Shown in pieces: positions 17,807 through 37,599 of a DNA stretch of 64,000 nt. The notes under the pieces were generated by a model. That model searched no databases. It saw only the letters and a list, made by a program, of their open reading frames with translations, and had not been told where the DNA came from. The stretch's first letter is position 1. Every line of letters starts with the position of its first letter. The translations under genes were made by a program, and so were the position numbers. Source of the stretch: a phage; the sequence record PX880099.1; one strand, written 5' to 3'.

Positions 17807-18279
17807 TGGCAGATTTAACTACGATCAAAATTTCTGATCTTACACAAACAACCTCTGTGTCTGATACAGATTTCTTTGTAACAGATCAGGCTGGAATAAC
17901 AAAGAAAACTTCTTTGAAAGTGCTGTTGAGTGGTGCAGGGGTAACTAGAAACCGTCTGAATGCACGGGGAACAGTAACTAGCACCCTGGCATTAGATATT
18001 AGTTCGGCAGAATATTTTTCAGCAACTTTATCTTCTGCAACGTGCACAATTAGTTTTACTAATATTCCAGTAGCAACAAATGCAGTTTTAAACTTTACTT
18101 TAGCTTTGCGTCAAGGAAGTGGTGCAAATAAAGTCGTATGGCCTTCTTCTGTAAAATGGAGTTTTGGTCGTTCCCCAGTTTTGAGTTATCGTCAAGGTGC
18201 AACAGACACTTTTGAGTTTATCAGTTATGATAATGGAGCAACTTGGACAGGTAGCTTAGTTTTAGCAGGAGTTATTTAA
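17806..18279 (+). CDS. Hypothetical baseplate-module protein
   Basis: 157 aa; overlapping stop/start with neighbours. Confidence 0.45.
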   Translation: MADLTTIKISDLTQTTSVSDTDFFVTDQAGITKKTSLKVLLSGAGVTRNRLNARGTVTSTLALDISSAEYFSATLSSATCTISFTNIPVATNAVLNFTLALRQGSGANKVVWPSSVKWSFGRSPVLSYRQGATDTFEFISYDNGATWTGSLVLAGVI

Positions 18280-21155
18280 TGTCAAGAGTTAAGCACAATA
18301 TTGACAACACGTTTCAGTTGATTGAAGGGTTGGTTCAGTTTTTGGAAAGAAATACTGGGCTTACCATAGATCCTACGGTTCAGCATTACATTATCAACCC
18401 ACAAAACGTATTGGCGAACAACAGACACTTTATTAACTGGACAGCGCAGGAAGGGCAACCAAACGGTGACGCTACTACCGAAGGTCAATCTGTGCTTATC
18501 ACTGGTTTTGCTTATGCATATTTGGCTACAGGGGATAAAAAATATCTTGAATCTGCCGAGAAGTATTGGCAAGCCTATATAGATCACTTCTTCGGGGGCC
18601 AACCTATTCCTGATCCTCCGGCTAAATATCGTCCCAACTGGATCATCAATGGTAAAGAACCACGTTTAGCACACTACCCTCTCACAGATGATGGATATCC
18701 TACGCACGGCGGGTTCAAAGGTAGCATGATGACTTGGATTAACGGAAGGACTGTTATTCCTAAAGGTGCGCCACACTGGGGAGAATACTTAGATAAAGCT
18801 TGGTTTGCTTTCAATGGTAATCTTGGTTGGAACTCTGTTAACGCAACAGTGTATGCAACTAACCCAGACGGTTCAACCAACTGGAAAGAATATGGAGATC
18901 AGTGGGACGTTGAATGGATTATAGACCGTCTAGGACGTAAAGTTGATTGGGATGGTAACATTTTATCTACTGGTCATAGCTTTGCAGAATATGGAACAGT
19001 GCAACTTAAAAACGCTTCTGTGAACGGTGACTATAAATTCAACTACGCTACATGCAACCCTGTAGAACACGGTGGATATCTGCTTAAGCGTAATGAGATG
19101 TGGCATAACCGTCCTGTAAACGTTCCGGTAGAGTTAGGTTATCAAGATAATGCTTCCGATGCTGAAACGTGGTGGTGTGATGCAAACTACTTGATGTATC
19201 AGATCACAGGAGAGAGAAAATACTGGCTTTGCTGGCAATCTTCTTTATTGCTGTGTCAAGACTACTCAAACATCGATATGTTTGATAAATTCTTCCGTAG
19301 ATCTACGACAGCAATAATTCCTTTTACAGATGGTATCTCTTATGATTACTCATACCCATCTACAGCAATACCTAAATATTCTCGTGACGAATTAGGATAC
19401 ACAGTAATTCGCCAAGATGTTGCAGCACAAACAACTCTAGAACAACAGGCAGTTTGGTTCAGAGTGGATCAGAATTCAAAACTTCGTATTGAGTTTCAAG
19501 GTGTAGATGATGCAGGGGAAGGTGTTCTTTTCCGTCCAGAGTTAGAATTAAGCAAGACTAAGAGTGAAACAGACACAGTGACATATCGTTGTGGCTTACC
19601 TCTTGGTGCAGCTAATATGACTAAGATGGATATACCTTTATCTAGTTTTATGCGCACTGAACCTCCTGGAGGTGGTGTATATATTATTGCTGAACCTAGA
19701 ATCATTGTTGACTGGGGAAGCAATACTGTGATACAATATAAATATGCAACTGGTATTGCTGGGACAAATAGTGATCAGATAGTTTCTGCTAATATGGATT
19801 CAGATGGTGGTTTTACTATTGGGTTTTGGTTAACACCAACTAAAACAGCCAATTTAAAATCTATTACGTATCGTTCATACGCAGATGATTTTAACATCAC
19901 TATTACGGATTCCGCAGGTTGGAGATGGTGGGCTATGTTAGAAAAAACAAATTCTGCATGGGTTACTAAAGCTTTAAGTCCTGCTGATTTCAAATTAAGT
20001 ACTTGGCAACCTAATCACGATGACACAGAGACAAAACCTTCGTCAATAAACCTGACTGCTGTTGATCAGATCAACATTGCATTGGATTCTGAACCTGCAA
20101 ATGGCTTGACAGGGGCAATCGACTTTTATTGCGTTAACGATATCCCATCTTTGTATTCTTCAGCCGCTGGCGATGATTACACAATGTATTTCAGGGTTAC
20201 AGTTTCATCTGAAAATCCTTATACAGCAAAACTTGGAGATTGTACAATACTGGACTACAAACTTGACAGTTTGAATTATACTCCAGGAATCATTCCATTT
20301 TCCAATATTAGTGATCCTAATACAGCATTATATGACGGTTGGCGTGGTATTCCTTACCCAGGTTATCAATACCCATCCTTATATTGTTTTAAAGGGAGAG
20401 ATATTGACTGGGTTCGTATGAACAACAGTATAGACTTTTTATATGATTCACAAATGTGGTTTTATAATAAGTTTGCCCCTGTAATGCCTGGGCCAATGGC
20501 ACAAGCTTATGTTTGGGATCGTTGGGATGCTCATAAATATGGAAACAAAAATGAGTTCACAATGTATCATTGGAACGATAAAGCTTGGGATGGTTATGAA
20601 GCACGAGCATTCTTCTGTGCGTGTCATACGGTATACGAACTGAAAAAACGAGGAGCCGAAGTTCCTGAAAAACTTTTAACAGTTTGTAAAAACTGGATCA
20701 ACTATCTGAAATGGTTCCAAGATAACAACGAAGGAAGAACACCAACAATATTTTATCCCAATGGAGAAGTGGCTGCGCCTGTAGATGACTTTACAAGTCA
20801 CATGTCTGCGCTCTTTATGGCGGGATGTGCTATAATGGGGATGGCTGGATATGATTCAGAAATTCCTAACATTAAAATAGTAGCAGACCGCTGTTTTGAA
20901 CTTATTCAGGAAAACTATATTGTTCTTGGTCCTAATCACGTCATGAATGGTTGTTGGAGTGCCGCTCCTAGACCAGATAGTGATAACGGAGTCTTCTTTG
21001 GCTTCCACGCTGGAGAGTTGTTACGTGGTTTTGGGTTGTATGCTTTATACAAAAAACTTAATCCCCAAAATGCATTACCTGTTTTGGATTCGAGCAATAT
21101 TCCTGCACTTACTGTTTTGACAATGGCAAACATTAGTGTGGACGTTACCGAGTAA
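18279..21155 (+). CDS. Large structural protein (putative tail fibre/spike or baseplate appendage)
   Basis: 958 aa; inserted between W-like and J-like baseplate genes. Confidence 0.5.
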   Translation: MSRVKHNIDNTFQLIEGLVQFLERNTGLTIDPTVQHYIINPQNVLANNRHFINWTAQEGQPNGDATTEGQSVLITGFAYAYLATGDKKYLESAEKYWQAYIDHFFGGQPIPDPPAKYRPNWIINGKEPRLAHYPLTDDGYPTHGGFKGSMMTWINGRTVIPKGAPHWGEYLDKAWFAFNGNLGWNSVNATVYATNPDGSTNWKEYGDQWDVEWIIDRLGRKVDWDGNILSTGHSFAEYGTVQLKNASVNGDYKFNYATCNPVEHGGYLLKRNEMWHNRPVNVPVELGYQDNASDAETWWCDANYLMYQITGERKYWLCWQSSLLLCQDYSNIDMFDKFFRRSTTAIIPFTDGISYDYSYPSTAIPKYSRDELGYTVIRQDVAAQTTLEQQAVWFRVDQNSKLRIEFQGVDDAGEGVLFRPELELSKTKSETDTVTYRCGLPLGAANMTKMDIPLSSFMRTEPPGGGVYIIAEPRIIVDWGSNTVIQYKYATGIAGTNSDQIVSANMDSDGGFTIGFWLTPTKTANLKSITYRSYADDFNITITDSAGWRWWAMLEKTNSAWVTKALSPADFKLSTWQPNHDDTETKPSSINLTAVDQINIALDSEPANGLTGAIDFYCVNDIPSLYSSAAGDDYTMYFRVTVSSENPYTAKLGDCTILDYKLDSLNYTPGIIPFSNISDPNTALYDGWRGIPYPGYQYPSLYCFKGRDIDWVRMNNSIDFLYDSQMWFYNKFAPVMPGPMAQAYVWDRWDAHKYGNKNEFTMYHWNDKAWDGYEARAFFCACHTVYELKKRGAEVPEKLLTVCKNWINYLKWFQDNNEGRTPTIFYPNGEVAAPVDDFTSHMSALFMAGCAIMGMAGYDSEIPNIKIVADRCFELIQENYIVLGPNHVMNGCWSAAPRPDSDNGVFFGFHAGELLRGFGLYALYKKLNPQNALPVLDSSNIPALTVLTMANISVDVTE

Positions 21156-21163
21156 GGGGTAAA

Positions 21164-23317
21164 ATGAAACAAGCTATATTTACTGTCACGCGAGACAAGA
21201 GAGTAAATGCGAGTTCATTTAACTACACGACTGTTGACGGAACAGCAGTCGCTGGTAGAGATTATATAGCAAAATCGGGAACACTTGTGTTCCCGGATGA
21301 TGCTGATTCTGCTACCATTGTGGTTGAAGTATTTGAACGACCAAAGAACTCAATAGATCTTAACTTCTCCCTCCAAGTTTCAGGGATTAGTCAAAATAAC
21401 ATGATGGTTGAAACGACCATCAATTGTATTATAACTACTATCCAAGAAAATACTACTCCAATAACTTGGACTACAAAAGACGTTAAAATGTTTTCTCCTA
21501 TGTATTGGACAATAGATTCTCAAGCAACGGAAAGTTGTTCTATTGTATCTCATGGAGACTCTTTTACTGCAAGATTTGTAAACAGAACAACAGCAGGTTT
21601 GGCAGGGGTTATCTGGAGCACAGTTGACAAATATGACCATAAAGGTGTTGGGTATTTACCCCACACAGATTTAAGTTCAGAGAAACTTTGGTTTAAAATG
21701 GAAATTAGTCAAAACATGCCAGGTTTTAAAGAAGAACCTTTGGTGCCAACTTTGACTGTAACTCTCTTGGATAAAAGTGTCCACTATGTTAGTTTAGGAT
21801 TTTATGCTTCAGATATTTCAGAAGATGGTAAAACAGCTACAATCAAATTAGATTTTGGTAATATCTTCTCTGGTCCTAATAATGATATTCCTTTGGACAT
21901 GAGTGCTGTAGATAATATTTTCTTCTCTTTGATTACAGCAAGGTATGAAGAAATAGAAGAGATTGTGCCTATTGATAGTCAAGAGGCTTGGTTTACTTTC
22001 ACTCTTCTTGAACCTACTTCTGGTTATAGTATGATGAAAGTCAGTAACCTTGTCCAGCCTGAACATGATATTCGCATGTGCACATCTTATGACGATATGT
22101 ATAACCTGACTCCAGAGAGAGTTATTTATAATACATATGCGCTAGGTTATCGTGGAATGATTAACCATTACAATGGAATGTCTCACTATTATGAGTTCTC
22201 ATGGAACGGAACATCTTGGGCTTTAAATAGATCTGTCTTCCTGAATCCAGCTACAGAAGCTTGGCTAAATAGTTTCCATTCTATAGCGAACGAGAAGGGT
22301 TACACAATAATGAACTCTTTAAGTTTTGAGTTGATGAGCACAGTTTGTCCTGTTGAATGGGTCCAGCATGATTGGAACGATGCTCTTGCAGCAACAGGGT
22401 ATGAACCTCCTAGTTATGTGTTGTCTCCAACTATTGACGAAGGTATGGAATATTTGCAAAATGTTATTAATAAAATAGCATCTATTTCGCAAGCTAATAA
22501 TATTCCAGTTGTCATTCAAATTGGTGAGCCTTGGTGGTGGTATAATACAGCAAGTAAAATGCCTTGCATATATGATTACACTACCAAACTGGCATTCAAC
22601 ACAGAAACAGGTTTATTTGCACAAGATGCAGGAACAATAGATAATTATAAAACAGGAACGCCGTTTGACGAATACTATGCATTTTTGTCTCGTAAACTAG
22701 GATTAAGAGTTACAAAGTTTGCAACAGATACTAGAGCAAATTACCCAGGAGCCAAGGTAACATTGCTTCCGTTCTTGCCATCAATTATCGGCAACGGTTT
22801 GATGGAGAAAGTTAACTTCCCGTCTGATTACTACATTCCTGAAGCTTTTGATTTTTACTGTTCAGAGTGTTATGACTGGCTTCTGGAAGGTAAGATGATG
22901 AAAGCATTTGATGCAATTACTATACCACATGAAAAATTAGGTTTTGAATATTCTGATATTCACTACCTTTCAGGTTTTGTTCCAGATGCTACTCTTGCAC
23001 CTTTGTATGGCTTTGATCCTAAATCAAACTACCGCACATATCTTTGGAAGATGATTATAGGTAACATAGTGTTGAACGCCAATAAGTTTGACGGACTTAC
23101 ACAATATATATGGGCCTATCCTCAAATAATGCATGATTCTATCACGGTAGTTAATTCTCAATCCCAAGTTTTCTATATGGGTAACGTGCCTTTGAACGTT
23201 TATTTACAGGATATCACTCTTAAACAGGTAAATGTTGAGATTGCCACCATAAGTGGAATTACATTAGCCACTAAATCTGGAGAAGATTTAGTAACAACAC
23301 AAAAATTTTATATATAG
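21164..23317 (+). CDS. Large structural protein (putative tail fibre/spike)
   Basis: 717 aa in the same insertion. Confidence 0.5.
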   Translation: MKQAIFTVTRDKRVNASSFNYTTVDGTAVAGRDYIAKSGTLVFPDDADSATIVVEVFERPKNSIDLNFSLQVSGISQNNMMVETTINCIITTIQENTTPITWTTKDVKMFSPMYWTIDSQATESCSIVSHGDSFTARFVNRTTAGLAGVIWSTVDKYDHKGVGYLPHTDLSSEKLWFKMEISQNMPGFKEEPLVPTLTVTLLDKSVHYVSLGFYASDISEDGKTATIKLDFGNIFSGPNNDIPLDMSAVDNIFFSLITARYEEIEEIVPIDSQEAWFTFTLLEPTSGYSMMKVSNLVQPEHDIRMCTSYDDMYNLTPERVIYNTYALGYRGMINHYNGMSHYYEFSWNGTSWALNRSVFLNPATEAWLNSFHSIANEKGYTIMNSLSFELMSTVCPVEWVQHDWNDALAATGYEPPSYVLSPTIDEGMEYLQNVINKIASISQANNIPVVIQIGEPWWWYNTASKMPCIYDYTTKLAFNTETGLFAQDAGTIDNYKTGTPFDEYYAFLSRKLGLRVTKFATDTRANYPGAKVTLLPFLPSIIGNGLMEKVNFPSDYYIPEAFDFYCSECYDWLLEGKMMKAFDAITIPHEKLGFEYSDIHYLSGFVPDATLAPLYGFDPKSNYRTYLWKMIIGNIVLNANKFDGLTQYIWAYPQIMHDSITVVNSQSQVFYMGNVPLNVYLQDITLKQVNVEIATISGITLATKSGEDLVTTQKFYI

Positions 23318-23325
23318 GAGTAAAA

Positions 23326-25101
23326 ATGTCAACTACAATTACTAATTTACCCGAAACATCAAAAGTTAATGGTTCTGATTACCTGGTTTTAGACCAACCT
23401 GATAAGACTGTTAAAAGCACAGTTTCCAACTTTCTTACTGACACTGGGGTGGTTTTAGCCACCCAGTTGAAAGATACTGGCTCAGAGTTAGTTACTTATA
23501 AATCTGCATTGAGTGGTGCGATTGCGCGTAACATCCATGAACGACTTTCTGACTATGTAAGTGTTAAAGACTTTGGTGCAATTGGTGATGGAGTTGCTGA
23601 TGATACAGCAGCAATACAGATAGCTAATGATGCAGCTACAGAAGTGGGTACTACTTTGTTCTTCCCTAAAGGGGTGTATCGTTGTACTGATGGTATCGAC
23701 AAGACTTGTGAATGGGTAGGTTCAGGTGCTGCAAAAATAGGTGCTTTTCCTCTTACGGATGATAAAGTATTTATGATACCAGGAATCAAGAACAAACTAC
23801 CTGGTACTTGCTTGTTATTCACTGGTGTAGGAACAAAATCTTTCTCTACAAATAGAGAAGACGAGTTCTCTAGTGTACGCTATTGTGTGTTAAATAAGGG
23901 AAGGAAAGGGCAAGGGTTAACACCTTTCGGTAAAGACCTAGCAATAGTGTGTGATTTTAACTATAAGAATACACTAGACGGAGAAGTTACAGATCCTACT
24001 AATGACAACTCTGCGGATTACGATGTAGGGTTGTTAATGCACAATACAGACCTATCTGGCCCATCTAATGTAACAGTCGGGGGTTATTTCAAGGTAGCAG
24101 GTACAATGCACTTTGGGCAAGACCCTGACGGGTGTACTGTATATGAATTAAGGACTATGGGAAACATTGGCCTAGCTATAGTAGGGGATGGCACTGGCAC
24201 TAATAGTGCATTTAATATGCACGGTGGTGCTATCTTTGGAAACGACCATCACAGCCGTAACGTAGAGTCCGGTGTAGAGAAGTGGGGAAAACATGCACTA
24301 TACATAGACATCCCATCTTCTGTAGGTTCTGGTTCACGTAATGGTATCTCCTTCCATGGAACATGGCTGGCAACTAAGTTAGATGTTCCAGTAAAATATG
24401 ACAGATGCGGTGCTATCCAATTCTTTGGTGTGGTGTTTGAGAATGCAACACAAGCAGGTAGCCAACAAGCGGGAGGTATTAAAAAACAAATTGGAACCAG
24501 TAATACAGGTGATATAGGTTTCTTTGGGTGCAGATTTAATTCAGACCAGATACGTATTTCTGGTGCTTTATTGGATACTGCGACGGAATCGACAGTGATC
24601 GTTTCTGGAAGTAATGCTGGATATGGTGTTGAATTTTGGAAAGGAAAGGTTGGAGGGCGTTTTACAGGAAGCAAAAATCAAACAAATATTCAACTAACGG
24701 ATGATCCAACAAAAACAACTAGTGGTGTGGTTCTACGTCGTGATTCTTCTGGTAATTTTAATATCTTACATAACAATGATATTAAATTTACATGCGACGG
24801 TGGGGGGATTAAGACCCACCTATCATCAACTGTAGCTACAGTTAGTGGTGGTCAGACTAATATAACTAGAAACTTGCACAAGCTAAGTGGTGGTACTCAA
24901 GAGTTAAACACATTGAACGGTGGAGTCGAAGGGATGCGTGTTGTTTTAGTGAGAAACACATCTGCCGACACAATTACACTAAAGAATCAAACAGGCAATT
25001 TACGCATCAATGGGGACTTTACTCTAGGAGCCTTCGACACTATAGAGCTAATTTACATAGGTGGTTATTGGAATGAAATAGGACGAGTTGACAGGGCTTA
25101 A
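23326..25101 (+). CDS. Tailspike with pectate-lyase-fold (beta-helix) domain, putative depolymerase
   Basis: 591 aa; conserved fibre-anchor-like N-terminus, then VKDFGAIGDGVADDTAAIQ motif typical of Pectate_lyase_3-type beta-helix proteins. Confidence 0.6.
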   Translation: MSTTITNLPETSKVNGSDYLVLDQPDKTVKSTVSNFLTDTGVVLATQLKDTGSELVTYKSALSGAIARNIHERLSDYVSVKDFGAIGDGVADDTAAIQIANDAATEVGTTLFFPKGVYRCTDGIDKTCEWVGSGAAKIGAFPLTDDKVFMIPGIKNKLPGTCLLFTGVGTKSFSTNREDEFSSVRYCVLNKGRKGQGLTPFGKDLAIVCDFNYKNTLDGEVTDPTNDNSADYDVGLLMHNTDLSGPSNVTVGGYFKVAGTMHFGQDPDGCTVYELRTMGNIGLAIVGDGTGTNSAFNMHGGAIFGNDHHSRNVESGVEKWGKHALYIDIPSSVGSGSRNGISFHGTWLATKLDVPVKYDRCGAIQFFGVVFENATQAGSQQAGGIKKQIGTSNTGDIGFFGCRFNSDQIRISGALLDTATESTVIVSGSNAGYGVEFWKGKVGGRFTGSKNQTNIQLTDDPTKTTSGVVLRRDSSGNFNILHNNDIKFTCDGGGIKTHLSSTVATVSGGQTNITRNLHKLSGGTQELNTLNGGVEGMRVVLVRNTSADTITLKNQTGNLRINGDFTLGAFDTIELIYIGGYWNEIGRVDRA

Positions 25102-25106
25102 CTAGA

Positions 25107-25128
25107 CAGTGCGTAAGCACTGCTTTTC
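25107..25128 (+). terminator. Terminator after tailspike gene
   Basis: CAGTGC / GTAA loop / GCACTG followed by CTTTTC. Confidence 0.5.
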
Positions 25129-25223
25129 ACACAACTTTTCTTAAAGGTTATCCTAGAGATAGCCTTTCTGAATGGGTGGTATCAGAAAAGTTATTCCATG
25201 CATCTGTTTCCCTGTAACACTAT

Positions 25224-25245
25224 CCCCTCTCTGGAGGGGTTTCTT
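25224..25245 (+). terminator. Second hairpin with T-rich tail
   Basis: CCCCTC / TCTG loop / GAGGGG followed by TTTCTT, just upstream of the RBS of small ORF 25266. Confidence 0.4.
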
Positions 25246-25265
25246 AGAAAAACAAAGAGGTACTT

Positions 25266-25415
25266 ATGAACGAATTATTCTCCCAAGGCGGTATTGCCCC
25301 AGGTACTACTGCCATTAGTCTTAGTGCTGCTGTACTTGTGCATTCAGCGGGTTCTGTAGACCTTGGGGAATTAGCTGTATCTCGTGATTTAAAAAGTAAT
25401 GAGAACGCACTATGA
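25266..25415 (+). CDS. Small hypothetical protein (49 aa)
   Basis: Not in ORF track (below 60 aa). AAGAGG RBS 6 nt before ATG; stop overlaps next start (ATGA). Confidence 0.35.
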   Translation: MNELFSQGGIAPGTTAISLSAAVLVHSAGSVDLGELAVSRDLKSNENAL

Positions 25416-25654
25416 GAAAATTTTTAATAGGTATGTTCTGTACATATCCTGATAATAAAGTCAGTTCTACTAAAGTCTGGAACGCTGTAGGCATGTCGGT
25501 TATGACAGGCATGTTTATCTTTTTAGGAATAGAAAAAGAAATTCCTGAATGGATGGGTTGGGCTTTTGTTTTCATGATAACCCCTTCTCGCCTCATGAAA
25601 AATCTTATTGATTTACGTTGGGGCAGATCACAATCTACCAAAGAGGATGACTAA
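25412..25654 (+). CDS. Small membrane protein (two predicted TM helices)
   Basis: 80 aa with hydrophobic segments VWNAVGMSVMTGMFIFLGI and WMGWAFVFMITP; coupled to upstream and downstream genes. Confidence 0.5.
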   Translation: MRKFLIGMFCTYPDNKVSSTKVWNAVGMSVMTGMFIFLGIEKEIPEWMGWAFVFMITPSRLMKNLIDLRWGRSQSTKEDD

Positions 25655-28844: not shown

Positions 28845-29390
28845 ATGATATTTACAAATTTTAAAAAGTATATTCCTGAAGATCCTGAACTAAAAGAATT
28901 GGTAGAAGCAGAGAACATTCTTTTCCTTCGTTGTGATCAAGGTTACGATTGGTATGATTTACGTAGCACAGAATTCAATAACGATAAAATGAAAGTCGTT
29001 TTTGATGATCAAAATCGTATTGTGTTTTGGAATACTGATCCTACACTACTTTGCCCTGAAGATCTTTCTATAGCACAAGTAGACTTTAATATAGATACTT
29101 TTGAGGATATTAGGAACAAGGTTTTGGATTTAGAAACCTTAACTCTTAAGGATAAAGAGTATTCCCGTGAAGAGTTGATGACACAAGCTAGTGCAAAGAT
29201 TCGCTCTTTACAAGAAACAGCGGTAGCACTTATAACACCTTTACAATATGCTAAAGATTTAGAAATGGCTACTGAAGATGAATTAGCTTATCTTAAAAAT
29301 CTTCAAGTTTATGTGGTTAAACTAAACCGTGTTCCGCTTCAAAAAAACTATCCTTACGCTATAGATTGGCCTACATTACCGACGGAATAA
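28845..29390 (+). CDS. Putative tail fibre assembly protein
   Basis: 181 aa immediately downstream of fibre gene (P2 H-G arrangement). Confidence 0.45.
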   Translation: MIFTNFKKYIPEDPELKELVEAENILFLRCDQGYDWYDLRSTEFNNDKMKVVFDDQNRIVFWNTDPTLLCPEDLSIAQVDFNIDTFEDIRNKVLDLETLTLKDKEYSREELMTQASAKIRSLQETAVALITPLQYAKDLEMATEDELAYLKNLQVYVVKLNRVPLQKNYPYAIDWPTLPTE

Positions 29391-29399: not shown

Positions 29400-29735
29400 A
29401 TGGAATTTCAAGAAGCATGGGGACTTGCAAAGGATGCAATCATCCCTTTAATCGGAGTCATCTGGTTCTTTTTCAAACAAAAAATGGATAAATTCGGCTC
29501 TGATCTTGAGGAAATGGAGGAGAAAAGTCGAGAGCTAGAGAAGAAGTTGGTCTTTGTTGAATCAACTTATGCAACTAAAGCCGAACTTACCCAGATGCTA
29601 AATCAAATTAACTCTACATTAATGGCAAATAATAACACTCTTGAGCAAAAGATTGAAAAGATTATGGACCTCAAGAATGCTACTATTCAAATGATGCTAG
29701 ATGACATAGTTAAACGTACACAGAATAAGGGGTAA
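29400..29735 (+). CDS. Small membrane-anchored coiled-coil protein
   Basis: 111 aa; N-terminal hydrophobic segment IIPLIGVIWFFF then charged helical region. Confidence 0.45.
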   Translation: MEFQEAWGLAKDAIIPLIGVIWFFFKQKMDKFGSDLEEMEEKSRELEKKLVFVESTYATKAELTQMLNQINSTLMANNNTLEQKIEKIMDLKNATIQMMLDDIVKRTQNKG

Positions 29736-29738: not shown

Positions 29739-32700
29739 ATGGCAACATTCCCAACATATCCAGCAACGTCTCTTGAACAGGGCGTAGATCTGGTTATTTT
29801 CTCGTCTAACCAACTCCATGATGTTATTAATGGAAGTGCTACAGAGAGTATTGAAACAGAATCAGGGTTGATACCAACCCTGAGAAAAGCCCTTGTTGAC
29901 AACTTTTTCTTTAAAAGCCCATTGGATTGGGCGCAAGGCACAAACGAAACAGTTTTTAACCAACTTCGTTATTTCCAGAATGGAGTGTTGAGTGGTTATT
30001 ACTATGCGCCTAATGCTACACTGGTAAACCCAATTCCTATGCAAGGGACTCCAGTAGGAGATAACAACTGGGTATTGTGGGGACTGAAGACAGAACAACT
30101 AGCAACAGAAGTCACCCCTTGGGTGTATTCTGGTGCAACTGGTTATGAAACAGTAATCAGTCCTCCCTACATCTTTGATAGTGCTATTGTTACAATCAAT
30201 GGTGTTATTCAGGTTCTGGGAGAAGCTTTCCGCATAGAAGATAGTAAAATCATTTTATCTGAACCTTTGGGGCATGATCCTGCAACAGGACTGCCAAACA
30301 AGCTTTTTGCCTATATTGGTAAAATCGTAGCTTCCGCAGATACAGATCCTAACTTAGAAAACCGTCTTGTCAGTTTAGAAACAAAAACTGAAGAACTGAC
30401 AGAAAGCATGGATAAAGTACCTTTACAAACTATTGCTCGTAAATACGGTTTGTTGGATGATGAAGTAGCTTACGCAACAGCGGGTCAATCATTAACAGGG
30501 ATTAAAGCTCTGTATGATCCGGTAGCACAATCTTCCTACACATTGCCTCCTAACATCACAGGGACTTTAACATCTTTGTCTGTTTCTGGAGTAATGACTT
30601 ATTCTGGCGGATCTGTAGATCTTTCTGCATTAGCTGTTGAACGTGGACAGTTTGTTCATTTGCCTACAAGCTTTGGTAATAACGTAACTCTGACAGCTAA
30701 AAATCAGACGATTGGGCGTGGCGCTGGTCGCTATCGTTGGGCGGGGAGTTTACCAAAAAGTATTTTAGCTTCTGATACATTGGAGACAAGCGGTGGATTA
30801 GGTCCAAACGCATGGGTTCTAACTAATACAGAAGGACTGTTAACCCCTCGTGGTGGAACATACAACGATTTATTCGATGTTGTCTACTTGTCAGAATTTG
30901 CTAACAATACAACTACCTATGCCACACCAGAAGCAGCTTTCCAGGCGGCACTGTTAGCGGCAAAAGCTTCGAAAAGTAAGATTCTCGATGCTTACGGTTG
31001 CGATATGACTTTCACGACAAGCTCTTTTGATATTCAAGGTATCACTTTGCGTGGGGGTGTGTTCCGTGGTCAACGCGACTATCGTGTGCAAAATGCTACA
31101 GTAGAAGGCACAACTTTCCGTAACTCTCGTGTTATGTATTGGGGTGGTGCTGTGCGCATGTTCGATTGTTTGTGGGACGGTGCTCCTCGCGCAGGTCAAG
31201 TTGGTAGCTTGGTATTCCAAGGCAACCCAATATCAGGTACTTTTGAAATTGATAATTGTACTTTTAAAAATGGGTTATATGGCATCCTTCAACAAGGAAC
31301 AGGGGAACCAGTAACACGCGGTGTCTTCCGTAACCTTACCTTCATGGACATGCAAGGTGATGCAATAGAACTGAACGTCATCAATAAACATTACGATGAT
31401 GGTTGTGTAATTGAGAATATTTACCTGTCTAATATCGATGGGACTAACGCTCCTATTCCTCTGTCCAACTGGGGTATCGGTATCGGTGTAGCTGGTAAAG
31501 GACCATATGGTTACGGAATCCCTGATGATCAATATTGCAAGAATATTACAATTCGTAACGTTTTTGCAAAACGTTGTCGTCAGATTGTCCACGTAGAAGT
31601 TGGTCGTAATATCTCTATCGAAAACATTCATGGCGATCCAGATCAAACCGTATCTGTTGGGACAGGTTTGGCAACTGGCGCAGTTGTAATGTATGGAAGT
31701 AAAGATTTTACGATTGACGGTGTTTACGGAGAGCCTAAAACAGACGGTAGCACACTTGCAAGTAATATCCGTATGATTTATTTGGAGTGGGGAACTAACG
31801 CAGTTCTGGACGAAGAGGGTAATCCGGTAGTTCCGGCACAGGGCAGACCTTCAAACCCATGCTTTAACTATTCTGTTCGTAACATTCACACCAAAACTGG
31901 GCGTGTTTTTGCAGGAGTTTCCGCTGGGCCAGGCTATGAAAACAGAGTCAGCTTTGAGAATATCCGTTGTGCTGCGTTGCAGTTGTTCGGTGTAGCTTCT
32001 TGGCTTTCAATGTCTAACATCACCTGTAATATCTTTGATTGTGTTGGTCAACCTGAATCTGGTCCAGGGACATTTTATGATGGATTCTTCCGTAGAGAAA
32101 AATCTGTTCTTGAGATGGTTAACGTAAACTGTTACCCAGATGGCAAGACTATGGTTACTGGTCGCCCACAGTGGAGCCGTTGCCGTTACTCTGATATTCA
32201 TCGTGTCAACTGTAATGTTGAAGCTAATATGTATACCAATATCGCAGGTGGTATTGGAGCTATTGTAGGGACAACTGGCAAAGTTTATTACTTAGAGCCT
32301 AACCCTAGCCGAAACATTGATGGGATGCATTTCCCAACAGGGAAGGAGTTTGACAAAGGGGATATGATAGTCAAAGCGGATAATACGTTCTTCCTTGTAA
32401 CAACAAGTGGGGCATACATTCCAGATATCCCAGCTTTCGGTATTCGAGCTACACAAGCAGGAGATACCTTCCTGACACAGAACTTGACTCCTAATGGGAC
32501 AGCAACAAACGCTTCTTGGTTGTATCACTATCCTCTGTCAGCAGGAACACGTATCCGTATTCCTGGTGCTGGTGTAGGTGGAGCAGATTTGGACACAGTT
32601 ATTACTCGTGCACCTTATCAAGATAATGATACGTGGACTAACCCAGTTAAAATAGACATTGCAGATCCAATTGTAACGCCTACGAGTGCTGGAGTTAGAA

Positions 32701-32792
32701 TCAAAACCATACCTAACGATTCTAGTAATGTTTCTGTAGGTAATACTGCGGTTATTCGCCCAACGCCAGTGGTAGATGTGCCAACAACCTAA
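29739..32792 (+). CDS. Large tail fibre/spike with parallel beta-helix region (putative depolymerase)
   Basis: 1017 aa; central region with beta-helix-like repeats (NCTFKNGLYGILQQG, CVIENIYLSNIDG, NITIRNVFAKRC, NISIENIHGD). Confidence 0.55.
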   Translation: MATFPTYPATSLEQGVDLVIFSSNQLHDVINGSATESIETESGLIPTLRKALVDNFFFKSPLDWAQGTNETVFNQLRYFQNGVLSGYYYAPNATLVNPIPMQGTPVGDNNWVLWGLKTEQLATEVTPWVYSGATGYETVISPPYIFDSAIVTINGVIQVLGEAFRIEDSKIILSEPLGHDPATGLPNKLFAYIGKIVASADTDPNLENRLVSLETKTEELTESMDKVPLQTIARKYGLLDDEVAYATAGQSLTGIKALYDPVAQSSYTLPPNITGTLTSLSVSGVMTYSGGSVDLSALAVERGQFVHLPTSFGNNVTLTAKNQTIGRGAGRYRWAGSLPKSILASDTLETSGGLGPNAWVLTNTEGLLTPRGGTYNDLFDVVYLSEFANNTTTYATPEAAFQAALLAAKASKSKILDAYGCDMTFTTSSFDIQGITLRGGVFRGQRDYRVQNATVEGTTFRNSRVMYWGGAVRMFDCLWDGAPRAGQVGSLVFQGNPISGTFEIDNCTFKNGLYGILQQGTGEPVTRGVFRNLTFMDMQGDAIELNVINKHYDDGCVIENIYLSNIDGTNAPIPLSNWGIGIGVAGKGPYGYGIPDDQYCKNITIRNVFAKRCRQIVHVEVGRNISIENIHGDPDQTVSVGTGLATGAVVMYGSKDFTIDGVYGEPKTDGSTLASNIRMIYLEWGTNAVLDEEGNPVVPAQGRPSNPCFNYSVRNIHTKTGRVFAGVSAGPGYENRVSFENIRCAALQLFGVASWLSMSNITCNIFDCVGQPESGPGTFYDGFFRREKSVLEMVNVNCYPDGKTMVTGRPQWSRCRYSDIHRVNCNVEANMYTNIAGGIGAIVGTTGKVYYLEPNPSRNIDGMHFPTGKEFDKGDMIVKADNTFFLVTTSGAYIPDIPAFGIRATQAGDTFLTQNLTPNGTATNASWLYHYPLSAGTRIRIPGAGVGGADLDTVITRAPYQDNDTWTNPVKIDIADPIVTPTSAGVRIKTIPNDSSNVSVGNTAVIRPTPVVDVPTT

Positions 32793-32802
32793 TGGAAATA
32801 GA

Positions 32803-32826
32803 GAGGGGGGAATCCCCCTCTTCTTC
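32803..32826 (+). terminator. Terminator after 1017-aa fibre gene
   Basis: GAGGGGG / GAAT loop / CCCCCTC followed by TTCTTCC. Confidence 0.55.
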
Positions 32827-32857
32827 CAATAGAATGGTCTAATAATAGGAGAGATAA

Positions 32858-34882
32858 ATGAATTTAACAAGACCTAATAGTGCGATAGCCGATCTAGTAG
32901 AAGCTACTTATCGAAAACGTCGCAGTTTTGAGGCAGGTTTTACATTACGTAATTCCCGTGAAGTTTTGCTGTTAGCGGCAGAAGGGAATTATTACCAATG
33001 GAAAGGAACTTTTCCTAAAGTAGTTCCAGCAAACTCTACGCCAGCCACCACAGGTGGTATTTCTTCCCTTGCATGGCAAAGTGTTGGGACCGCTGATGAT
33101 ATAGCAATTATCAATGCCAAGTTTACGGCAATGCAGCAACAGATTGATGATCTGTCGGAAACAATACCTGAAGCTGGTAAATCGGCTTATCAGATCGCAC
33201 TTGATAATGGTTTTGTTGGAACAGAAGCACAATGGCTTGCTTCTTTGAAAGGGGATACTGGTGCTCAACTTAATATTAAAGGATCATTAGCAAGCACTAG
33301 TGAACTACCATCTACAGGTAACGTTGCAGGGGATGGTTATATCGTAGGTGATGTGATTTACGCTTGGGATGGTTCTGTTTGGAAACTTATTTCTTCTCTT
33401 GGGCCAGAAGGTAAATCAGCTTATGAGGTATGGTTGGCAGATGGTAATACAGGATCTGTTTATGATTTTCTTACCTCTATAAAAGGTGATAAAGGCGATG
33501 TTGGTCCTACAGGGCCACAGGGAGCACCTGGTGTTAACGCCAACGGTTTTGATTATCGTGGGGATTTGCCTTCTACAAGTAACTTACCACAACCTAACTC
33601 TGAAAACGTAAGCCAAGCTTATTCTATCAATGGTAATCTTTATGTCTCCAATGGGACAGCTTGGGTCAACATGGGTAATATTGTTGGTCCTCAAGGTCCA
33701 CAAGGTGAGGCAGGTAAAGACGGTCTAGATGGAACAGATGGAGATGAAGGGAAATCTGCATATCAAAGTTGGCTGGATGCTGGTAATGAAGGGACAGAAG
33801 TAGATTTTATTGCCTCGCTTAAAGGTCCAAAAGGAGACAAGGGAGAGCAAGGAGAACGAGGACCACAAGGCGAATTAGGTCCACAAGGACCAGTGGGTGC
33901 AACAGGATCAGGTTTAGAGATTATCGGGGTTCTGAACAGCGAAGCTGAACTTCCTCCGACTGGAGAAGTAGGTGATGCATATAAAATTAATAATGATTTG
34001 TATGTTTGGGTTCAAGATGCTACGGAATGGATGAATGTTGGCAGTCTTGGAGGAACATCAATTACAGCTAAAGGTCATGTTCCAAACAGTGAAGCTCTCC
34101 CTGTTTACAATAACTATGGCGATGCCTACTTAACTGAAGACACTAGTAATCTTTACATCTATACCTACGATCAAGACACCAATTCCGCATCTTTTGTTGA
34201 CATGGGAAGTATTAAAGGCGACAAAGGTGAAAAAGGGGATAAAGGAGATAAGGGTGATCCTGGAACAAACGGAACCAACGGTACTGATGGGACCAACGGT
34301 AAGGACGGCGCACAGTGGTTTGTAGCAACAACTAATCCAGTCGCAGGAGACGGTGTTATCAATGATTACGCCTTCAATACTACCACTGGAGCAGTGTTTA
34401 AGAAAACAGATTCTTCTACGTGGACACTTATAGGAACTCTTCCTAGTATACCAGAAGCTCCTCAAGACGGCTTGACGTATGGTCGTTCTGATGGAAACTG
34501 GATCGAAATATCAGGATCAGATCCTACGGAAGCTATAACGCCAACTAGAGTTACAGCAGGTTTCATGGAACTTGAAACAACTACTGCCAACTCTGGAGCA
34601 TCTTGGACTCCTTCTGGAACTTCCAATATGTATGTTGTTACAGTAACTGACGCTCTGACAGTTGGAGCATGGCCTGGTGTCACTGGCTCTACAAAACCTA
34701 AAGCGTTTTCAGCAATGATTTATTTGATTCAAGATACAACGGGACACACGGTTACACTAGATGCGTCTTATGGAGCACTAAATGATACAGAAATAGCAAC
34801 TACTGCTAACGCAGTAACAATTTTGCAATTAACGTATCCTGGTGTGGGTGATATCGTGGACATGGTTGTTGTAACACGATAA
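32858..34882 (+). CDS. Tail fibre with collagen-like Gly-X-Y repeats
   Basis: 674 aa; several interrupted G-X-Y runs (GPQGPQGEAGKDGLDGTDGDEGK; KGDKGEKGDKGDKGDPGTNGTNGTDGTNGKDG). Confidence 0.6.
   Translation: MNLTRPNSAIADLVEATYRKRRSFEAGFTLRNSREVLLLAAEGNYYQWKGTFPKVVPANSTPATTGGISSLAWQSVGTADDIAIINAKFTAMQQQIDDLSETIPEAGKSAYQIALDNGFVGTEAQWLASLKGDTGAQLNIKGSLASTSELPSTGNVAGDGYIVGDVIYAWDGSVWKLISSLGPEGKSAYEVWLADGNTGSVYDFLTSIKGDKGDVGPTGPQGAPGVNANGFDYRGDLPSTSNLPQPNSENVSQAYSINGNLYVSNGTAWVNMGNIVGPQGPQGEAGKDGLDGTDGDEGKSAYQSWLDAGNEGTEVDFIASLKGPKGDKGEQGERGPQGELGPQGPVGATGSGLEIIGVLNSEAELPPTGEVGDAYKINNDLYVWVQDATEWMNVGSLGGTSITAKGHVPNSEALPVYNNYGDAYLTEDTSNLYIYTYDQDTNSASFVDMGSIKGDKGEKGDKGDKGDPGTNGTNGTDGTNGKDGAQWFVATTNPVAGDGVINDYAFNTTTGAVFKKTDSSTWTLIGTLPSIPEAPQDGLTYGRSDGNWIEISGSDPTEAITPTRVTAGFMELETTTANSGASWTPSGTSNMYVVTVTDALTVGAWPGVTGSTKPKAFSAMIYLIQDTTGHTVTLDASYGALNDTEIATTANAVTILQLTYPGVGDIVDMVVVTR
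33481..34320 (+). repeat. Collagen-like triplet-repeat segments within fibre gene
   Basis: Repeated GGN-NNN-NNN codon periodicity encoding G-X-Y runs at ~33481-33540, 33686-33750, 33821-33910 and 34201-34320. Confidence 0.6.
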
Positions 34883-34885
34883 CAG

Positions 34886-34910
34886 AAGCCCCGAAAGGGG
34901 CTTTCTTTTT
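34886..34910 (+). terminator. Rho-independent terminator
   Basis: AAGCCCC / GAAA loop / GGGGCTT followed by TCTTTTT. Confidence 0.7.
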
Positions 34911-34923
34911 ATGGAGGGTTTAA

Positions 34924-37599
34924 ATGTTTCCAATTCCAATATTTACTATTATGACCAGCACTGGTGTCGTTCCTCTGCCAGCAGGTATTGTTAAAAAAGT
35001 AATCACTTTAGATTACCCAGACAATGCTGGTAATTCTAACAGCAGTTTAGCAATTTTGCTTAATGATGGTAGATTGTTTACTCAAGGCGCAAACCTTTTT
35101 GGTGAGATTGCAGATGGAACTCGTAGTGCACGATTCAATAACTTCCACTTAGCTTCTACTGTAGTAGCGGATGTGTTTACCGCAGATCGTTGTTTTGTTA
35201 TTAAAACTAACAGTGGGGGATGGCAATATTCAGGATTGACAGCAGGATTGGTAGGATCTATAGCAGCAGGTGGTACGGACGCATGTGTAACTACTTGGAC
35301 CAGCTTTCCATCTGTAATAACAGGGACTATCTCTTTAGCCAATCTTAAAGAGGTTAAGGGAGGATATAACAACACTCTCTGGTTAATGAATAGTGGTGTT
35401 CTTTATGGATCAGGTCAAAACACAGTAGGTAGTTTAGGTGCAAGTACTACTAACGAAGTTTCTACTCCTCGTCAGATAACAAGTGCAGCAGTTGCTTTTG
35501 ATGCAGGTTACAACCAATGCTCTTATGTCAACAATGTGGGAACCTTGCGTGTTTGTGGAGCTAGTAAAGGTTTAGCAGGTAATAATAACACAACAACAGC
35601 TTTTGTCAATGCCAAGATATCCGCTACTGAAACAGTGTATGTCAAAGATTACATCAATACAGTTTCCCAGACAATAGTTGTAGGAGATACCTCCGGTGGC
35701 ACGGGTACAGTAAACTACTTATATGTTAGATCTAATACAGAAACAACCTACACTAAACTGGATACCTTTGCAGCAGGTTTCTCAACATGGAAGTTTCCAC
35801 CAAGCCGCCACTCTTTTTTCGTTGGGATCAATAATTCCTTGTGGGCTATTGGTAAGAACTACACTGCAAACTTAGGTTTGGGGTATGATTCTGCGAGCGG
35901 AGATCCACTCCAAGTGGGAAAACCAGTTAAACCTGAAGGAGTGGGTTCTTGGGATATAAACAAGCTCACAAGCGTTCATACGCTGAATATGGATGTTACT
36001 AACCAATTAGGTTATCAAGGAACCTTTTTCGTTTATAATGGAGATATGTATTATTCCGGTATTTGGAAAGATGGGAAAGCCTCGTATCTGTTCAATAGTG
36101 GTCTAAACTATAATAAATTCACACCAATAGCAAGCTCCGTGATTACGGGTGATATTCTGGCAACTGGCTTAACTACAGATTCTTTAGGAATTTGTATTGT
36201 AGGCGGAACTAAACAGTTGACACATTCTGTTAGCCCAGAAGGAGGTAAACTTTTCAATATTAAATACACTTCTTCTGCCCCTGCAAACATGACAATATCA
36301 TCTACTGGTTTAATGACTTTCCATGCAGAAGGTGGTTTTGATGCAGGTATGACAGCCTTAAACGCTGAAGGAACAACTTTATCAGATACCTCTGGAGGAT
36401 ATGCTTCAACATTGAGCGTTTACACTCCTAGCTTATCTGCAATGGATGTAGGAACAACACAAACAATGGTAGCAGAAATAACGCCAACAGGGGCAGCAAG
36501 CTTACCTGGTATGGTTGTTGAGTATTTCTCTAATGACCCTACGGTAGCAACAGTTGACCCCGTTACAGGCGTTATTACAGCAGTTGCTGATGGGGATTGT
36601 CGTATCGGTTGTAGAGCAACTTATCAAGGTGTGGTAACTGCCGAAGATAGTTCTTATCTCGCAGTGAATGCTGTGGTGATTGTGATGGACTATGATTTGA
36701 CGCAAGAAACTATTCCGGCGGATGTAAAGGTCAACAGGAGTAACCGTTATGCCAGGGCTTCTGGAGATATCCTTGTACCTACGGAGAGTTCTGCTCCCGT
36801 AGCACCTTTAGAATATGTTGGTACAACTCCACAAGGTAGACGTGTTGTAGCAGCCAACCGTACACATATCTTTATCAACAACAACTTGACAACAGCTTCC
36901 CCGTGGTTGAAGACGAACTTGACAGTCACGGCATCAACAATCAACTCTCCGGTTGGAACTACGGCTAACACTTACAAGTTAACACCTTCTACAACTTCAG
37001 GACAACATATTTTATCAGCAGTGAATACAGCTTCTGATATTACAGCAGGTAAGCACTGGGCGGCATCCGTATTCTTGAAGCCAGACGGGATCACTAAAGT
37101 GAAACTCAAATTGACTTCAGGAGATGAGATTAACGAAGGGACTTATGATCTTGTAGCTGGAACATTTACAGGTGCAGATGCAAACATAATCGATATGGGG
37201 AATGGTTGGTATCGTGTAATTCTACACAAAGTGACAGTTGCCAAACAAGCATCTATAACCTATGAGATTATAGCTTTGAATGCAAGTGGATCAGACACTT
37301 TCGCAGGAGATGGTACGGCAGGTCTTATTGCTTGGGTTCCACAGCTTGAGATGGGTGATATGACAAATCCAGTTTGGGCGGGGACACCATTTGTTTGTTC
37401 TTATGCACGAGACACTACCAGTGCTGTTACCTTCACTATTCCTAAGAATGGACATACTGGCGTGGACATTTACCACACTGATGGTACTGTGCAACGAGAG
37501 GTCTTCACTGGTACAGCTACAACTTGGATGTTGACGTTCACCGCCGCAAGTGCGGATTGGGGATCGAAGTTCATTACAGGTTTGAAATATTACGACTAA
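34924..37599 (+). CDS. Large tail fibre protein
   Basis: 891 aa; G/T/S/N-rich repetitive sequence; last gene of plus-strand structural block. Confidence 0.5.
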   Translation: MFPIPIFTIMTSTGVVPLPAGIVKKVITLDYPDNAGNSNSSLAILLNDGRLFTQGANLFGEIADGTRSARFNNFHLASTVVADVFTADRCFVIKTNSGGWQYSGLTAGLVGSIAAGGTDACVTTWTSFPSVITGTISLANLKEVKGGYNNTLWLMNSGVLYGSGQNTVGSLGASTTNEVSTPRQITSAAVAFDAGYNQCSYVNNVGTLRVCGASKGLAGNNNTTTAFVNAKISATETVYVKDYINTVSQTIVVGDTSGGTGTVNYLYVRSNTETTYTKLDTFAAGFSTWKFPPSRHSFFVGINNSLWAIGKNYTANLGLGYDSASGDPLQVGKPVKPEGVGSWDINKLTSVHTLNMDVTNQLGYQGTFFVYNGDMYYSGIWKDGKASYLFNSGLNYNKFTPIASSVITGDILATGLTTDSLGICIVGGTKQLTHSVSPEGGKLFNIKYTSSAPANMTISSTGLMTFHAEGGFDAGMTALNAEGTTLSDTSGGYASTLSVYTPSLSAMDVGTTQTMVAEITPTGAASLPGMVVEYFSNDPTVATVDPVTGVITAVADGDCRIGCRATYQGVVTAEDSSYLAVNAVVIVMDYDLTQETIPADVKVNRSNRYARASGDILVPTESSAPVAPLEYVGTTPQGRRVVAANRTHIFINNNLTTASPWLKTNLTVTASTINSPVGTTANTYKLTPSTTSGQHILSAVNTASDITAGKHWAASVFLKPDGITKVKLKLTSGDEINEGTYDLVAGTFTGADANIIDMGNGWYRVILHKVTVAKQASITYEIIALNASGSDTFAGDGTAGLIAWVPQLEMGDMTNPVWAGTPFVCSYARDTTSAVTFTIPKNGHTGVDIYHTDGTVQREVFTGTATTWMLTFTAASADWGSKFITGLKYYD

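Follow-up and report, generated by a model that had tools for sequence, protein, structure and literature searches.

A conserved multi-receptor tail apparatus with one exchangeable tailspike slot in a phAPEC8-like phage

The locus and its relatives

Our analysis indicates that seven large genes in a 64,000-nucleotide (nt) stretch of phage DNA (sequence record PX880099.1, here called the window) form part of the multi-receptor tail apparatus of phAPEC8/phi92-type Escherichia coli phages. The 19-kb stretch that they occupy is ordinary for this family and already known. An initial annotation had proposed seven fibre or spike proteins of 958, 717, 591, 353, 1017, 674 and 891 amino acids (aa), and all seven open reading frames (ORFs) are present at these sizes on the + strand, between 18279 and 37599 (19.3 kb). 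Its description of them as a modular, multivalent receptor-binding set is borne out and is also the published description of the phi92-type family. We consider it very probable (roughly 0.85) that these genes encode the periphery of the baseplate and the host-recognition devices of a phAPEC8-type myophage, the same apparatus as that of phi92, with a host range that changes by cassette swapping.

By its sequence, the window belongs to Phapecoctavirus (phAPEC8-like; Stephanstirmvirinae). A megablast search with positions 17000-38000 returned 66 phage records with a query coverage of 80% or more. The best of these reach 97-98% nt identity and are nearly all Phapecoctavirus. Many genomes of this genus show 97.8% nt identity across about 91-92% of the 21 kb. 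The type phage, phAPEC8 (NC_020079), is about 98% identical at the nt level and has its terminators at the same positions; the proteins encoded at 14307-37599 are 99-100% identical to its own, the exceptions being the 591-aa gene and the adjacent 80-aa ORF (94%). For six of the seven large genes, the counterparts in phAPEC8, UP17 and ESCO13 show 99-100% identity.

Gene order corresponds one-to-one with gp139-gp153 of phi92 (Justusliebigvirus; Schwarzer et al. 2012, J Virol 86:10384; PMC13450770) at 60-87% protein identity, gene for gene from the sheath initiator to the last tail protein. Phi92 gp139-gp151 and phAPEC8 gp099-gp086 are collinear from the initiator through the collagen-like fibre. 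This shared set consists of the sheath initiator, a small fibre-like protein, two glycosidase-like proteins (the gp141/gp142-type pair), the exchangeable spike of the gp143 slot, a small membrane protein, two wedge proteins, a short fibre (fibre III) with its chaperone, a colanidase spike and the collagen-like fibre. Phi92 differs in carrying a 918-aa endosialidase in the slot where a 591-aa pectate-lyase-type spike is found here, in having other alleles of the short-fibre tip and chaperone, and in having a split gp152/gp153 where the 891-aa gene is intact here.

The finding itself adds little, since the multivalent tail apparatus of phi92, rV5 and phAPEC8-type phages has already been published. 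The "multivalent adsorption apparatus" of phi92 is credited to Schwarzer et al. (2012) where that work is cited in PMC8594841, PMC5380687 and PMC11990801. In the BASEL papers, orthologous loci in Vequintavirinae, phi92-like and phAPEC8-like phages are called a "nanosized Swiss army knife" (PMC8594841). In a 2026 cryo-electron microscopy (cryo-EM) study of phi92, gp139 was modelled as the sheath initiator and gp145/gp146 as the wedge, gp147 was supported as fibre III, and gp143 was inferred to be the tip of fibre I (PMC13450770).

The exchangeable tailspike slot

The initial annotation regarded the whole 19 kb as a likely host-range hot spot. We find that this applies to one slot, to the short-fibre tip with its chaperone and to the C-terminal third of the 891-aa protein, and not to the locus as a whole. 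The comparison with relatives that it had suggested, for presence or absence of each fibre gene, showed a slot that is variable and missing from ESCO13, whereas the 958-, 717- and 1017-aa proteins are 98-100% identical in every relative compared, and the 674-aa fibre is 99-100% identical in all of those but tuntematon (94%).

Homology to phAPEC8 ends within the spike gene, after 51 codons (position 23478), and restarts at 25417. The 591-aa protein aligns with phAPEC8 gp095 and phi92 gp143 over residues 1-97 only (64-66% identity), the bodies being unrelated; the phAPEC8 spike is a 921-aa endo-N-acetylneuraminidase-type protein, in contrast to the 591-aa spike and 49-aa scar ORF found here. The body matches Pect-lyase_RHGA_epim (PF12708; 2.4e-11, 44.3 bits vs a cut-off of 27) with a weak match to Phage_depo_C, and residues 50-115 match Sf6-type tailspikes. 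The gp143 position is occupied here by an exchangeable tailspike whose N-terminal anchor is conserved. In a large protein collection, about 48 cluster representatives of 379-857 aa have only the first ~50 residues in common (86-100%). The bodies carried on this shared anchor include beta-helix, endosialidase, SGNH esterase, GDPD and BNR sialidase types, some with S74 chaperone domains. Distant kin of the body found here (about 46% identity) occur as tail fibres of the podophages P151 and Sarma103, and protein searches found no characterised close homologue. A publicly available contig of 149.8 kb (P0159) already carries the identical 591-aa allele.

The cassette body at 23563-25416 (1854 nt, the scar ORF included) shares 99.7% nt identity with the Justusliebigvirus alia and 98.9% with J-01. 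The flanks, in contrast, show only 81-86% nt identity to alia, and the remaining locus only 60-87% protein identity. This difference points to a recent transfer between genera, and the presence of a 99.7% identical copy in another genus shows that the cassette moves freely in nature. The N-terminal anchor of the spike tracks the resident genus when this locus is compared with alia.

Slot lengths, which are approximate, were measured by hand as flank-to-flank distances from two hit tables. The slot is absent (about 40 nt) in ESCO13, Schickermooser, ESCO25, WPEC2 and Mt1B1_P17, in agreement with the ESCO13 annotation; it is about 0.36 kb in ESCO9 and falls into many length classes of 1.8-3.05 kb in other relatives. 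For the ESCO phages, earlier work has reported that the spike at the gp143 position can be present, absent or exchanged (PMC10269720).

The 49-aa scar ORF (MNELFSQGG...) lies just past the tailspike terminator. Its residues 10-49 are 95-100% identical to slot-end sequence in nieznany, ALITA, SD2 and PD211, and residues 9-41 are 74-94% identical to Kuttervirus and G7C-like tailspikes. In tuntematon, nieznany and ZCKP1 a longer fragment of 102 aa occupies the scar position. From these sequences, successive cassette replacements appear to leave stacked scars. The ORF has its own Shine-Dalgarno-like sequence, and its stop overlaps the start of the next gene (ATGA).

Phages of this group are in therapeutic use. 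For host-range prediction or engineering, the useful target would be the ~1.9-kb cassette behind its ~50-residue anchor rather than the 19 kb.

Fibres and spikes

Based on sequence comparison, the 591-, 353-, 1017- and 674-aa proteins are well supported as true fibres or spikes. This part of the seven-fibre claim stands, while the folds of the 958-, 717- and 891-aa proteins speak against the remainder. The "tail fibre" labels of the latter three are misleading because two have the globular folds of carbohydrate enzymes and the third is adhesin-like, with a propeller and Ig domains. The two beta-helix depolymerase-like domains proposed earlier hold at the level of homology, in the 591-aa protein through PF12708 and in the 1017-aa protein through its match to the phi92 gp150 structure (6e0v/6e0w).

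The 353-aa fibre is 76% identical to phi92 gp147 over residues 1-267 only, and its tip (286-353) matches a solved short tail fibre (9cuy_c). The match to tuntematon likewise covers only residues 1-274 (94%), the tip being replaced. The 181-aa chaperone co-varies with this tip: it is only 23-25% identical to the phi92 and alia chaperones and has no match in tuntematon. The locus shares with Mu/P2-type baseplate operons a J-like wedge protein and an H/S-type fibre with a Caudo_TAP chaperone.

The 1017-aa protein is an orthologue of phi92 gp150, annotated in the phi92 record as "colanidase tailspike". Residues 426-1000 match the gp150 chains 6e0v/6e0w (E 1.9e-79), and residues 502-662 are WcaM-like. 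The N-terminal 215 residues are 75% identical to gp150 but the catalytic part only 33%. About 150 residues not found in gp150 lie within 216-454 and match the paired N-terminal domains of the CBA120 tailspike proteins (TSPs) TSP1/3/4; these domains span residues 226-399, with PF18668 at 302-361. The 674-aa fibre begins with the same Tail_spike_N domain (PF18668, 12-77), followed by Pfam Collagen with Scl/Lcl collagen-like repeats, and its C-terminus (559-671) matches a solved tail fibre (9cuy_g). CBA120 TSP matches were found for this protein too. Since TSP domains are found both in the 1017-aa spike and at the start of the 674-aa fibre, spike-on-spike docking of the Ackermannviridae kind is possible.

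The 958- and 717-aa proteins

The predicted structure of the 958-aa protein is globular and contains a complete (alpha/alpha)6 barrel (the fold group of GH8, GH76, GH88/105 and AGE) rather than a fibre shaft. Sequence identity between the barrel and its structural matches is only 7-14%, and no sequence match was found in Pfam, NCBIfam or PDB. Homologues occur in quite different settings. In a P2-like prophage (L005 8001-11294, P0087) the 958-like body extends the wedge protein gpI at its C-terminus. In an SU10-like podophage (L006 6691-11364, P0092) 958-like and 717-like (NCTSP) bodies form one polypeptide encoded shortly past the adaptor gene. Further homologues of 1425-1657 aa bear extensions at their C-termini, some with a Gly_rich_2 domain. 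Judged from these sequences, the (alpha/alpha)6 module is a tail accessory spread across phage morphotypes.

The 717-aa protein exceeds the Pfam cut-offs for PF03160, PF23844 and PF23845, with NCTSP_N at 59.3 bits and TIM-barrel_NCTSP at 266.3 bits (cut-offs 27). It matches N4 Gp64 (PDB 9lc0_M) at E 3.4e-30, and its residues 269-344 match residues 343-416 of the N4 sheath protein gp65 (9lc0_I) at E 1.1e-12. The rest of the ten-domain gp65 is not matched by this protein, and no other gp65-like protein was found in the locus. With relaxed Pfam/NCBIfam thresholds, the TIM barrel matched no deacetylase or glycosidase family beyond the NCTSP models. The N4 gp64 and gp65 proteins form a receptor-binding, non-contractile sheath (PMC13434306). 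Based on this relationship and on the genetics of relatives (PMC8669472), we consider the 717-aa protein a candidate for binding or processing NGR, a conserved glycan. The enzyme-like folds overturn nothing in the literature: in a review table that cites the phi92 paper, both Gp141 and Gp142 already appear under "Glycosidase" (PMC5380687). RefSeq labels the 717-aa homologue of ESCO13 (L007 4665-6728) "capsid protein", which is likely a misannotation.

The phi92 cryo-EM study leaves fibre II and the arm of fibre I unassigned and describes the arm as a scaffold carrying gp143; only fibre-shaped candidates were screened, and gp141 and gp142 were never considered (PMC13450770). The placement of the 958- and 717-aa proteins given here is thus our own inference. 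We tentatively propose, at clearly less than even odds, that the pair is a single non-fibrous, two-enzyme unit for glycan processing, bolted to the wedge, that it corresponds to the unassigned fibre II/fibre I arm of phi92, and that it is portable and targets NGR. Myophages and podophages would share this unit, and its portability would be seen in the gpI fusion of the P2-like prophage, in the single chain of the SU10-like phage and in the gp64/gp65 sheath of N4. Gp141 and gp142 are the two obvious candidates for the unassigned phi92 densities, and this is the one lead worth following.

The same two proteins could instead be purely structural, that is, wedge extensions or scaffolds that hold the exchangeable spike (the fibre I arm), with vestigial enzyme folds, and the apparatus would have fewer receptor specificities than its number of genes suggests. 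We regard this as rather unlikely. The fusion to gpI, the single SU10-like polypeptide near the adaptor gene and the description of an arm-like scaffold bearing gp143 all agree with it, and within the genus the two proteins hardly vary, as is the case for scaffolds. Against it, over 100 columns are invariant in the 958-aa family (members 42-55% identical). These columns are rich in His, Asp, Glu, Arg, Trp and Asn, a pattern suggesting that a ligand site or active site has been kept. The "Glycosidase" listing of the review table also argues against it, and relatives need the NGR glycan, the 717-aa protein being the only N4-related protein found in the locus. The scaffold and enzyme roles are compatible and not mutually exclusive. 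Proof that homologues are baseplate wedge proteins was named in the initial annotation as something that would speak against fibres; through its gpI fusion the 958-aa protein comes close to this.

The 891-aa protein

The 891-aa protein consists of an RCC1-type 7-bladed propeller (about 20-400), two Ig domains (410-582), a low-confidence linker and an exchangeable C-terminal domain. Residues 580-831 match the RcGTA head spike fibre (6tb9_F3) at E 4.5e-14, and residues 644-814 match NCBIfam GTA_spike_fiber at 73.7 bits (cut-off 36). Beyond residue 584 the protein is replaced in tuntematon.

These matches raise the question of whether this is a head, neck or other accessory adhesin, Ig-decorated in the style of Hoc or the RcGTA head spike, rather than a part of the tail adsorption apparatus. 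The "phage head spike fiber" name of the NCBIfam domain and the head category of PHROG 215 ("structural protein with Ig domain") agree with such a role, as does the position of the gene, flanked on both sides by strong terminators. Capsid decoration proteins often carry Ig (Big_2) domains. Moreover, Justusliebigviruses have no intact copy (PMC12695924). Nevertheless, we find this alternative doubtful. RefSeq calls the product a "tail protein" and it falls in the tail-category PHROG 11922; its C-terminal third can be swapped while the first two-thirds are conserved, as is typical of receptor-binding proteins; and no head fibre has been reported on phi92, although phi92 has no intact 891-aa gene.

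The interval between the W-like and J-like genes

The initial annotation placed a W-like gene at 17180 and a J-like gene at 25654. The second is confirmed by a Baseplate_J match above cut-off (33.2 bits vs 21.1). The first holds functionally: the 208-aa protein matches PHROG 120 (baseplate wedge subunit) at 6e-20, and its W-like role rests on this match and on the structure of its phi92 orthologue because the Pfam GPW_gp25 match is not significant (E 0.16). From the end of the 208-aa gene (17806) to the J-like start (25654) there are 7.8 kb and six ORFs, and the adjacency of W and J in Mu/P2-type operons is not found here. The three large genes reported from this interval are present, with three further ORFs that had gone unlisted, namely the 157-aa gene, the 49-aa scar and the 80-aa gene. 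A P2-like prophage (L005), for contrast, has V-W-J-I contiguous.

The suggestion of a local insertion between W and J does not hold. The arrangement is identical in phi92, alia, phAPEC8, UP17, ZCKP1, tuntematon and nieznany. ESCO13 keeps the order of sheath initiator, accessory genes and J-like wedge gene without the tailspike slot, and rV5 has seven genes between gp44 and the J-like gp36. Based on these genomes, the extra genes appear as a family-wide trait rather than a local insertion. The proposal that all seven are independent fibres or spikes, that three of them were inserted into a Mu/P2-type W-J operon in this lineage and that the whole 19 kb is a hot spot draws on the existence of all seven ORFs, on public annotations that are mostly "tail fiber" or "tail protein" and on a 7.8-kb gap between two genes that adjoin in the P2-like prophage, yet we judge it very improbable and, on synteny and conservation, already largely refuted: the arrangement is present in all relatives examined from two subfamilies, rV5 included, the 958-aa protein has a predicted globular enzyme fold, the 717-aa protein is N4-sheath-like, and the variation lies in one slot and two C-terminal modules.

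The 157-aa protein matches PHROG 9017 ("tail fiber protein") at 2.7e-68, its C-terminal ~100 aa are also found at the C-termini of several tail-fibre PHROGs, and no sequence match was found in PDB. The phi92 paper groups gp140 with gp151; a domain shared between the 157-aa protein and the 674-aa fibre was tried and rejected (E 0.22, not significant). The 80-aa protein matches PHROG 1322 ("membrane protein", 1.8e-27) and has two hydrophobic segments. It is 81-85% identical to phi92 gp144 and alia gp025 and 94% identical to its phAPEC8 counterpart. Its gene lies within the baseplate operon directly 5′ of the J-like gene in all relatives, and its 5′ end is the right-hand junction of the variable slot. 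The 209-aa wedge protein matches Pfam DUF2612 (28.8 bits, cut-off 23.5). In ZCKP1 an "endonuclease" adjoining the locus (L008 22233-22640) is noted as "baseplate wedge protein gp25", likely a RefSeq misannotation.

Proposed mechanism

The model that we favour, of a phi92-type apparatus that changes host range by cassette swapping, builds on the orthology, synteny, folds and site of variation established above; substrates, baseplate positions and the trigger step, the last taken from phi92 cryo-EM, are our projections. The J-like (495-aa) and second wedge (209-aa) proteins would form six wedges that together bear several receptor-binding devices. The exchangeable 591-aa beta-helix spike would dock through its ~50-residue anchor and degrade or bind a strain-specific surface glycan, and the 1017-aa colanidase tailspike would clear colanic acid. 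The 674-aa collagen-like fibre and the globular 958-/717-aa pair would act on conserved glycans, probably NGR. We name NGR as the probable target because relatives depend on wecB and nfrB (PMC8669472; PMC11990801). The 353-aa short fibre, folded with its 181-aa chaperone, would then contact a terminal receptor on the lipopolysaccharide (LPS) core, and its rearrangement would trigger sheath contraction, as proposed for phi92. Both the NGR glycan (wecB/nfrB) and the LPS core are needed by relatives (PMC8594841; PMC8669472; PMC11990801). Host range would evolve through cassette swaps at the one slot and through exchange of two C-terminal modules rather than across the whole locus.

Several points weigh against this model. 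The dependence on NGR and the LPS core was measured on Vequintavirinae and phi92-like phages and not on Phapecoctavirus, and the substrates that we give for the 591-, 958- and 717-aa proteins are inferred. Virion support comes from homologues, by cryo-EM for phi92 gp139, gp143, gp145, gp146 and gp147 (PMC13450770) and by mass spectrometry (MS) for rV5. Virion proteomics of the Phapecoctavirus Schickermooser was looked for in Korf 2019, and none is reported there. Phi92 cryo-EM leaves fibre II and the fibre I arm unassigned, with gp141/gp142 undiscussed. Lastly, phi92 lacks an intact counterpart of the 891-aa protein (split gp152 + gp153, no propeller), and this protein may lie outside the tail apparatus because, among proteins of solved structure, its closest relative is the head-spike fibre from a gene transfer agent (GTA).

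Comparison with other systems

The Vequintavirus rV5 has three lateral fibre sets and shares the "nanosized Swiss army knife" description (PMC3606486, PMC8594841). As in our window, several large accessory genes lie between its early baseplate genes and its J-like gene. The 958-aa protein corresponds to rV5 gp42 (35%) and the 717-aa protein to gp34; gp30 and gp33 are the short-fibre homologues. Gp42 and several other homologues were detected in rV5 virions by MS. In contrast, gene content and order differ in rV5, which has two short-fibre paralogues and a 1878-aa gp27, and its 717-like gp34 (L011 12327-14399) lies downstream of the wedge genes instead of upstream. This position suggests that the accessory genes were rearranged around the J-like gene as the two subfamilies diverged.

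The N4 sheath is a gp64-gp65 heterodimer that binds the NfrA/NGR receptor (PDB 9lc0, 9yf4). The 717-aa protein combines the TIM barrel of gp64 with a ~75-residue piece of gp65, and dependence on the NGR pathway is common to N4 and relatives of this phage. It differs in being a single chain on a contractile tail, with an added Calx-beta domain and without almost all of the ten-domain gp65, and a sheath-like assembly is not known in the phAPEC8/phi92 family.

The locus also shares features with the branched tailspike complex of the Ackermannviridae (CBA120/Kuttervirus). Tail_spike_N domains of the TSP N-terminal type are present in the 1017- and 674-aa proteins and in many slot alleles, and a Kuttervirus-like tailspike fragment persists as the 49-aa scar ORF. 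Unlike the four consecutive TSP genes of that family, however, the spikes here are spread over the baseplate operon, and the sequences give no sign of a TSP2/TSP4 anchor architecture or of branching.

Transcription signals and minor features

The claim that several fibre genes end in their own terminators is correct for four of the seven, two with strong and two with weak terminator-like hairpins at their 3′ ends, and the scan found none behind the 958-, 717- and 353-aa genes (Table 1). Across 17000-36999 there are 22 terminator-like sites vs 12.8 +/- 3.0 in shuffles. The phAPEC8 annotation also places terminators after its 674-aa and 891-aa counterparts. A converging - strand ORF ends at 37663 and the GC skew changes sign near 38 kb; the hairpin at 37603-37630 lies between the structural operon on the + strand and the replication genes that converge on it from the - strand. 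Separate transcription units could not be drawn from sigma-70-like promoter hits (50 found vs 53 expected by chance), and the idea of an island of foreign composition was dropped, with GC at 0.37-0.43 throughout and no sharp step.

Table 1. Coordinates of genes, cassette and terminator-like hairpins in the window.
Feature	Position	Strand	Remarks
208-aa sheath initiator (gp25/W-role)	17180..17806	+	phi92 gp139 orthologue, 74% identical
157-aa small fibre-like protein	17806..18279	+	phi92 gp140 orthologue, 83% identical
958-aa (alpha/alpha)6-barrel glycosidase-like tail protein with beta-sandwich inserts	18279..21155	+	phi92 gp141, rV5 gp42 homologue
717-aa Calx-beta + NCTSP_N + TIM-barrel protein	21164..23317	+	phi92 gp142 orthologue, 77% identical
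591-aa exchangeable tailspike: N-terminal anchor (~50 aa), pectate-lyase-type beta-helix, C-terminal beta-sandwich	23326..25101	+	phi92 gp143 slot
Cassette replaced relative to phAPEC8 (hypervariable slot)	23479..25416	+	1938 nt
Weak terminator-like hairpin	25224..25239	+	after 591-aa tailspike gene
49-aa scar ORF	25266..25415	+	3′ end of earlier tailspike allele
80-aa small membrane protein	25412..25654	+	phi92 gp144 family
495-aa J-like baseplate wedge protein	25654..27141	+	phi92 gp145 orthologue, 80% identical
209-aa second wedge protein	27144..27773	+	phi92 gp146 orthologue, 87% identical
353-aa short tail fibre with exchangeable tip	27783..28844	+	phi92 gp147 ("fibre III")
181-aa tail-fibre assembly chaperone	28845..29390	+	Pfam Caudo_TAP 2.3e-13, 50.8 bits vs 22.1
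111-aa membrane-anchored protein	29400..29735	+	phi92 gp149; PHROG 15210, annotated "lipoprotein" (RefSeq, PHROGs)
1017-aa colanic-acid-degrading tailspike with Ackermannviridae-type TSP N-terminal domains	29739..32792	+	phi92 gp150 type
Weak terminator-like hairpin	32805..32817	+	after 1017-aa colanidase gene
674-aa collagen-like tail fibre	32858..34882	+	phi92 gp151, 60% identical
Strong intrinsic-terminator-like hairpin	34885..34904	+	after 674-aa gene
891-aa modular protein	34924..37599	+	propeller-Ig-GTA-spike-fibre architecture
Strong terminator hairpin closing the structural operon	37603..37630	+	after 891-aa gene, between converging genes

The 111-aa protein, encoded between the fibre chaperone and colanidase genes, shows 100% conservation across the genus. 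Its sequence lacks a signal peptide and a lipobox cysteine. It starts with a hydrophobic helix, and the charged, heptad-like segment behind this helix is one that we read by eye as a likely coiled coil.

At this locus, some records with other host labels match E. coli Phapecoctavirus or Justusliebigvirus genomes, namely the Campylobacter phages B15 (MG065650) and A145 (MG065645), the Acinetobacter phage ABPW7 (OP562383) and the Klebsiella phage ZCKP1 (NC_047994). Identity to E. coli phages across the locus is about 81-99% nt, with B15, ABPW7 and ZCKP1 at the top. These labels may reflect contamination or the isolation strain and not the true host range.

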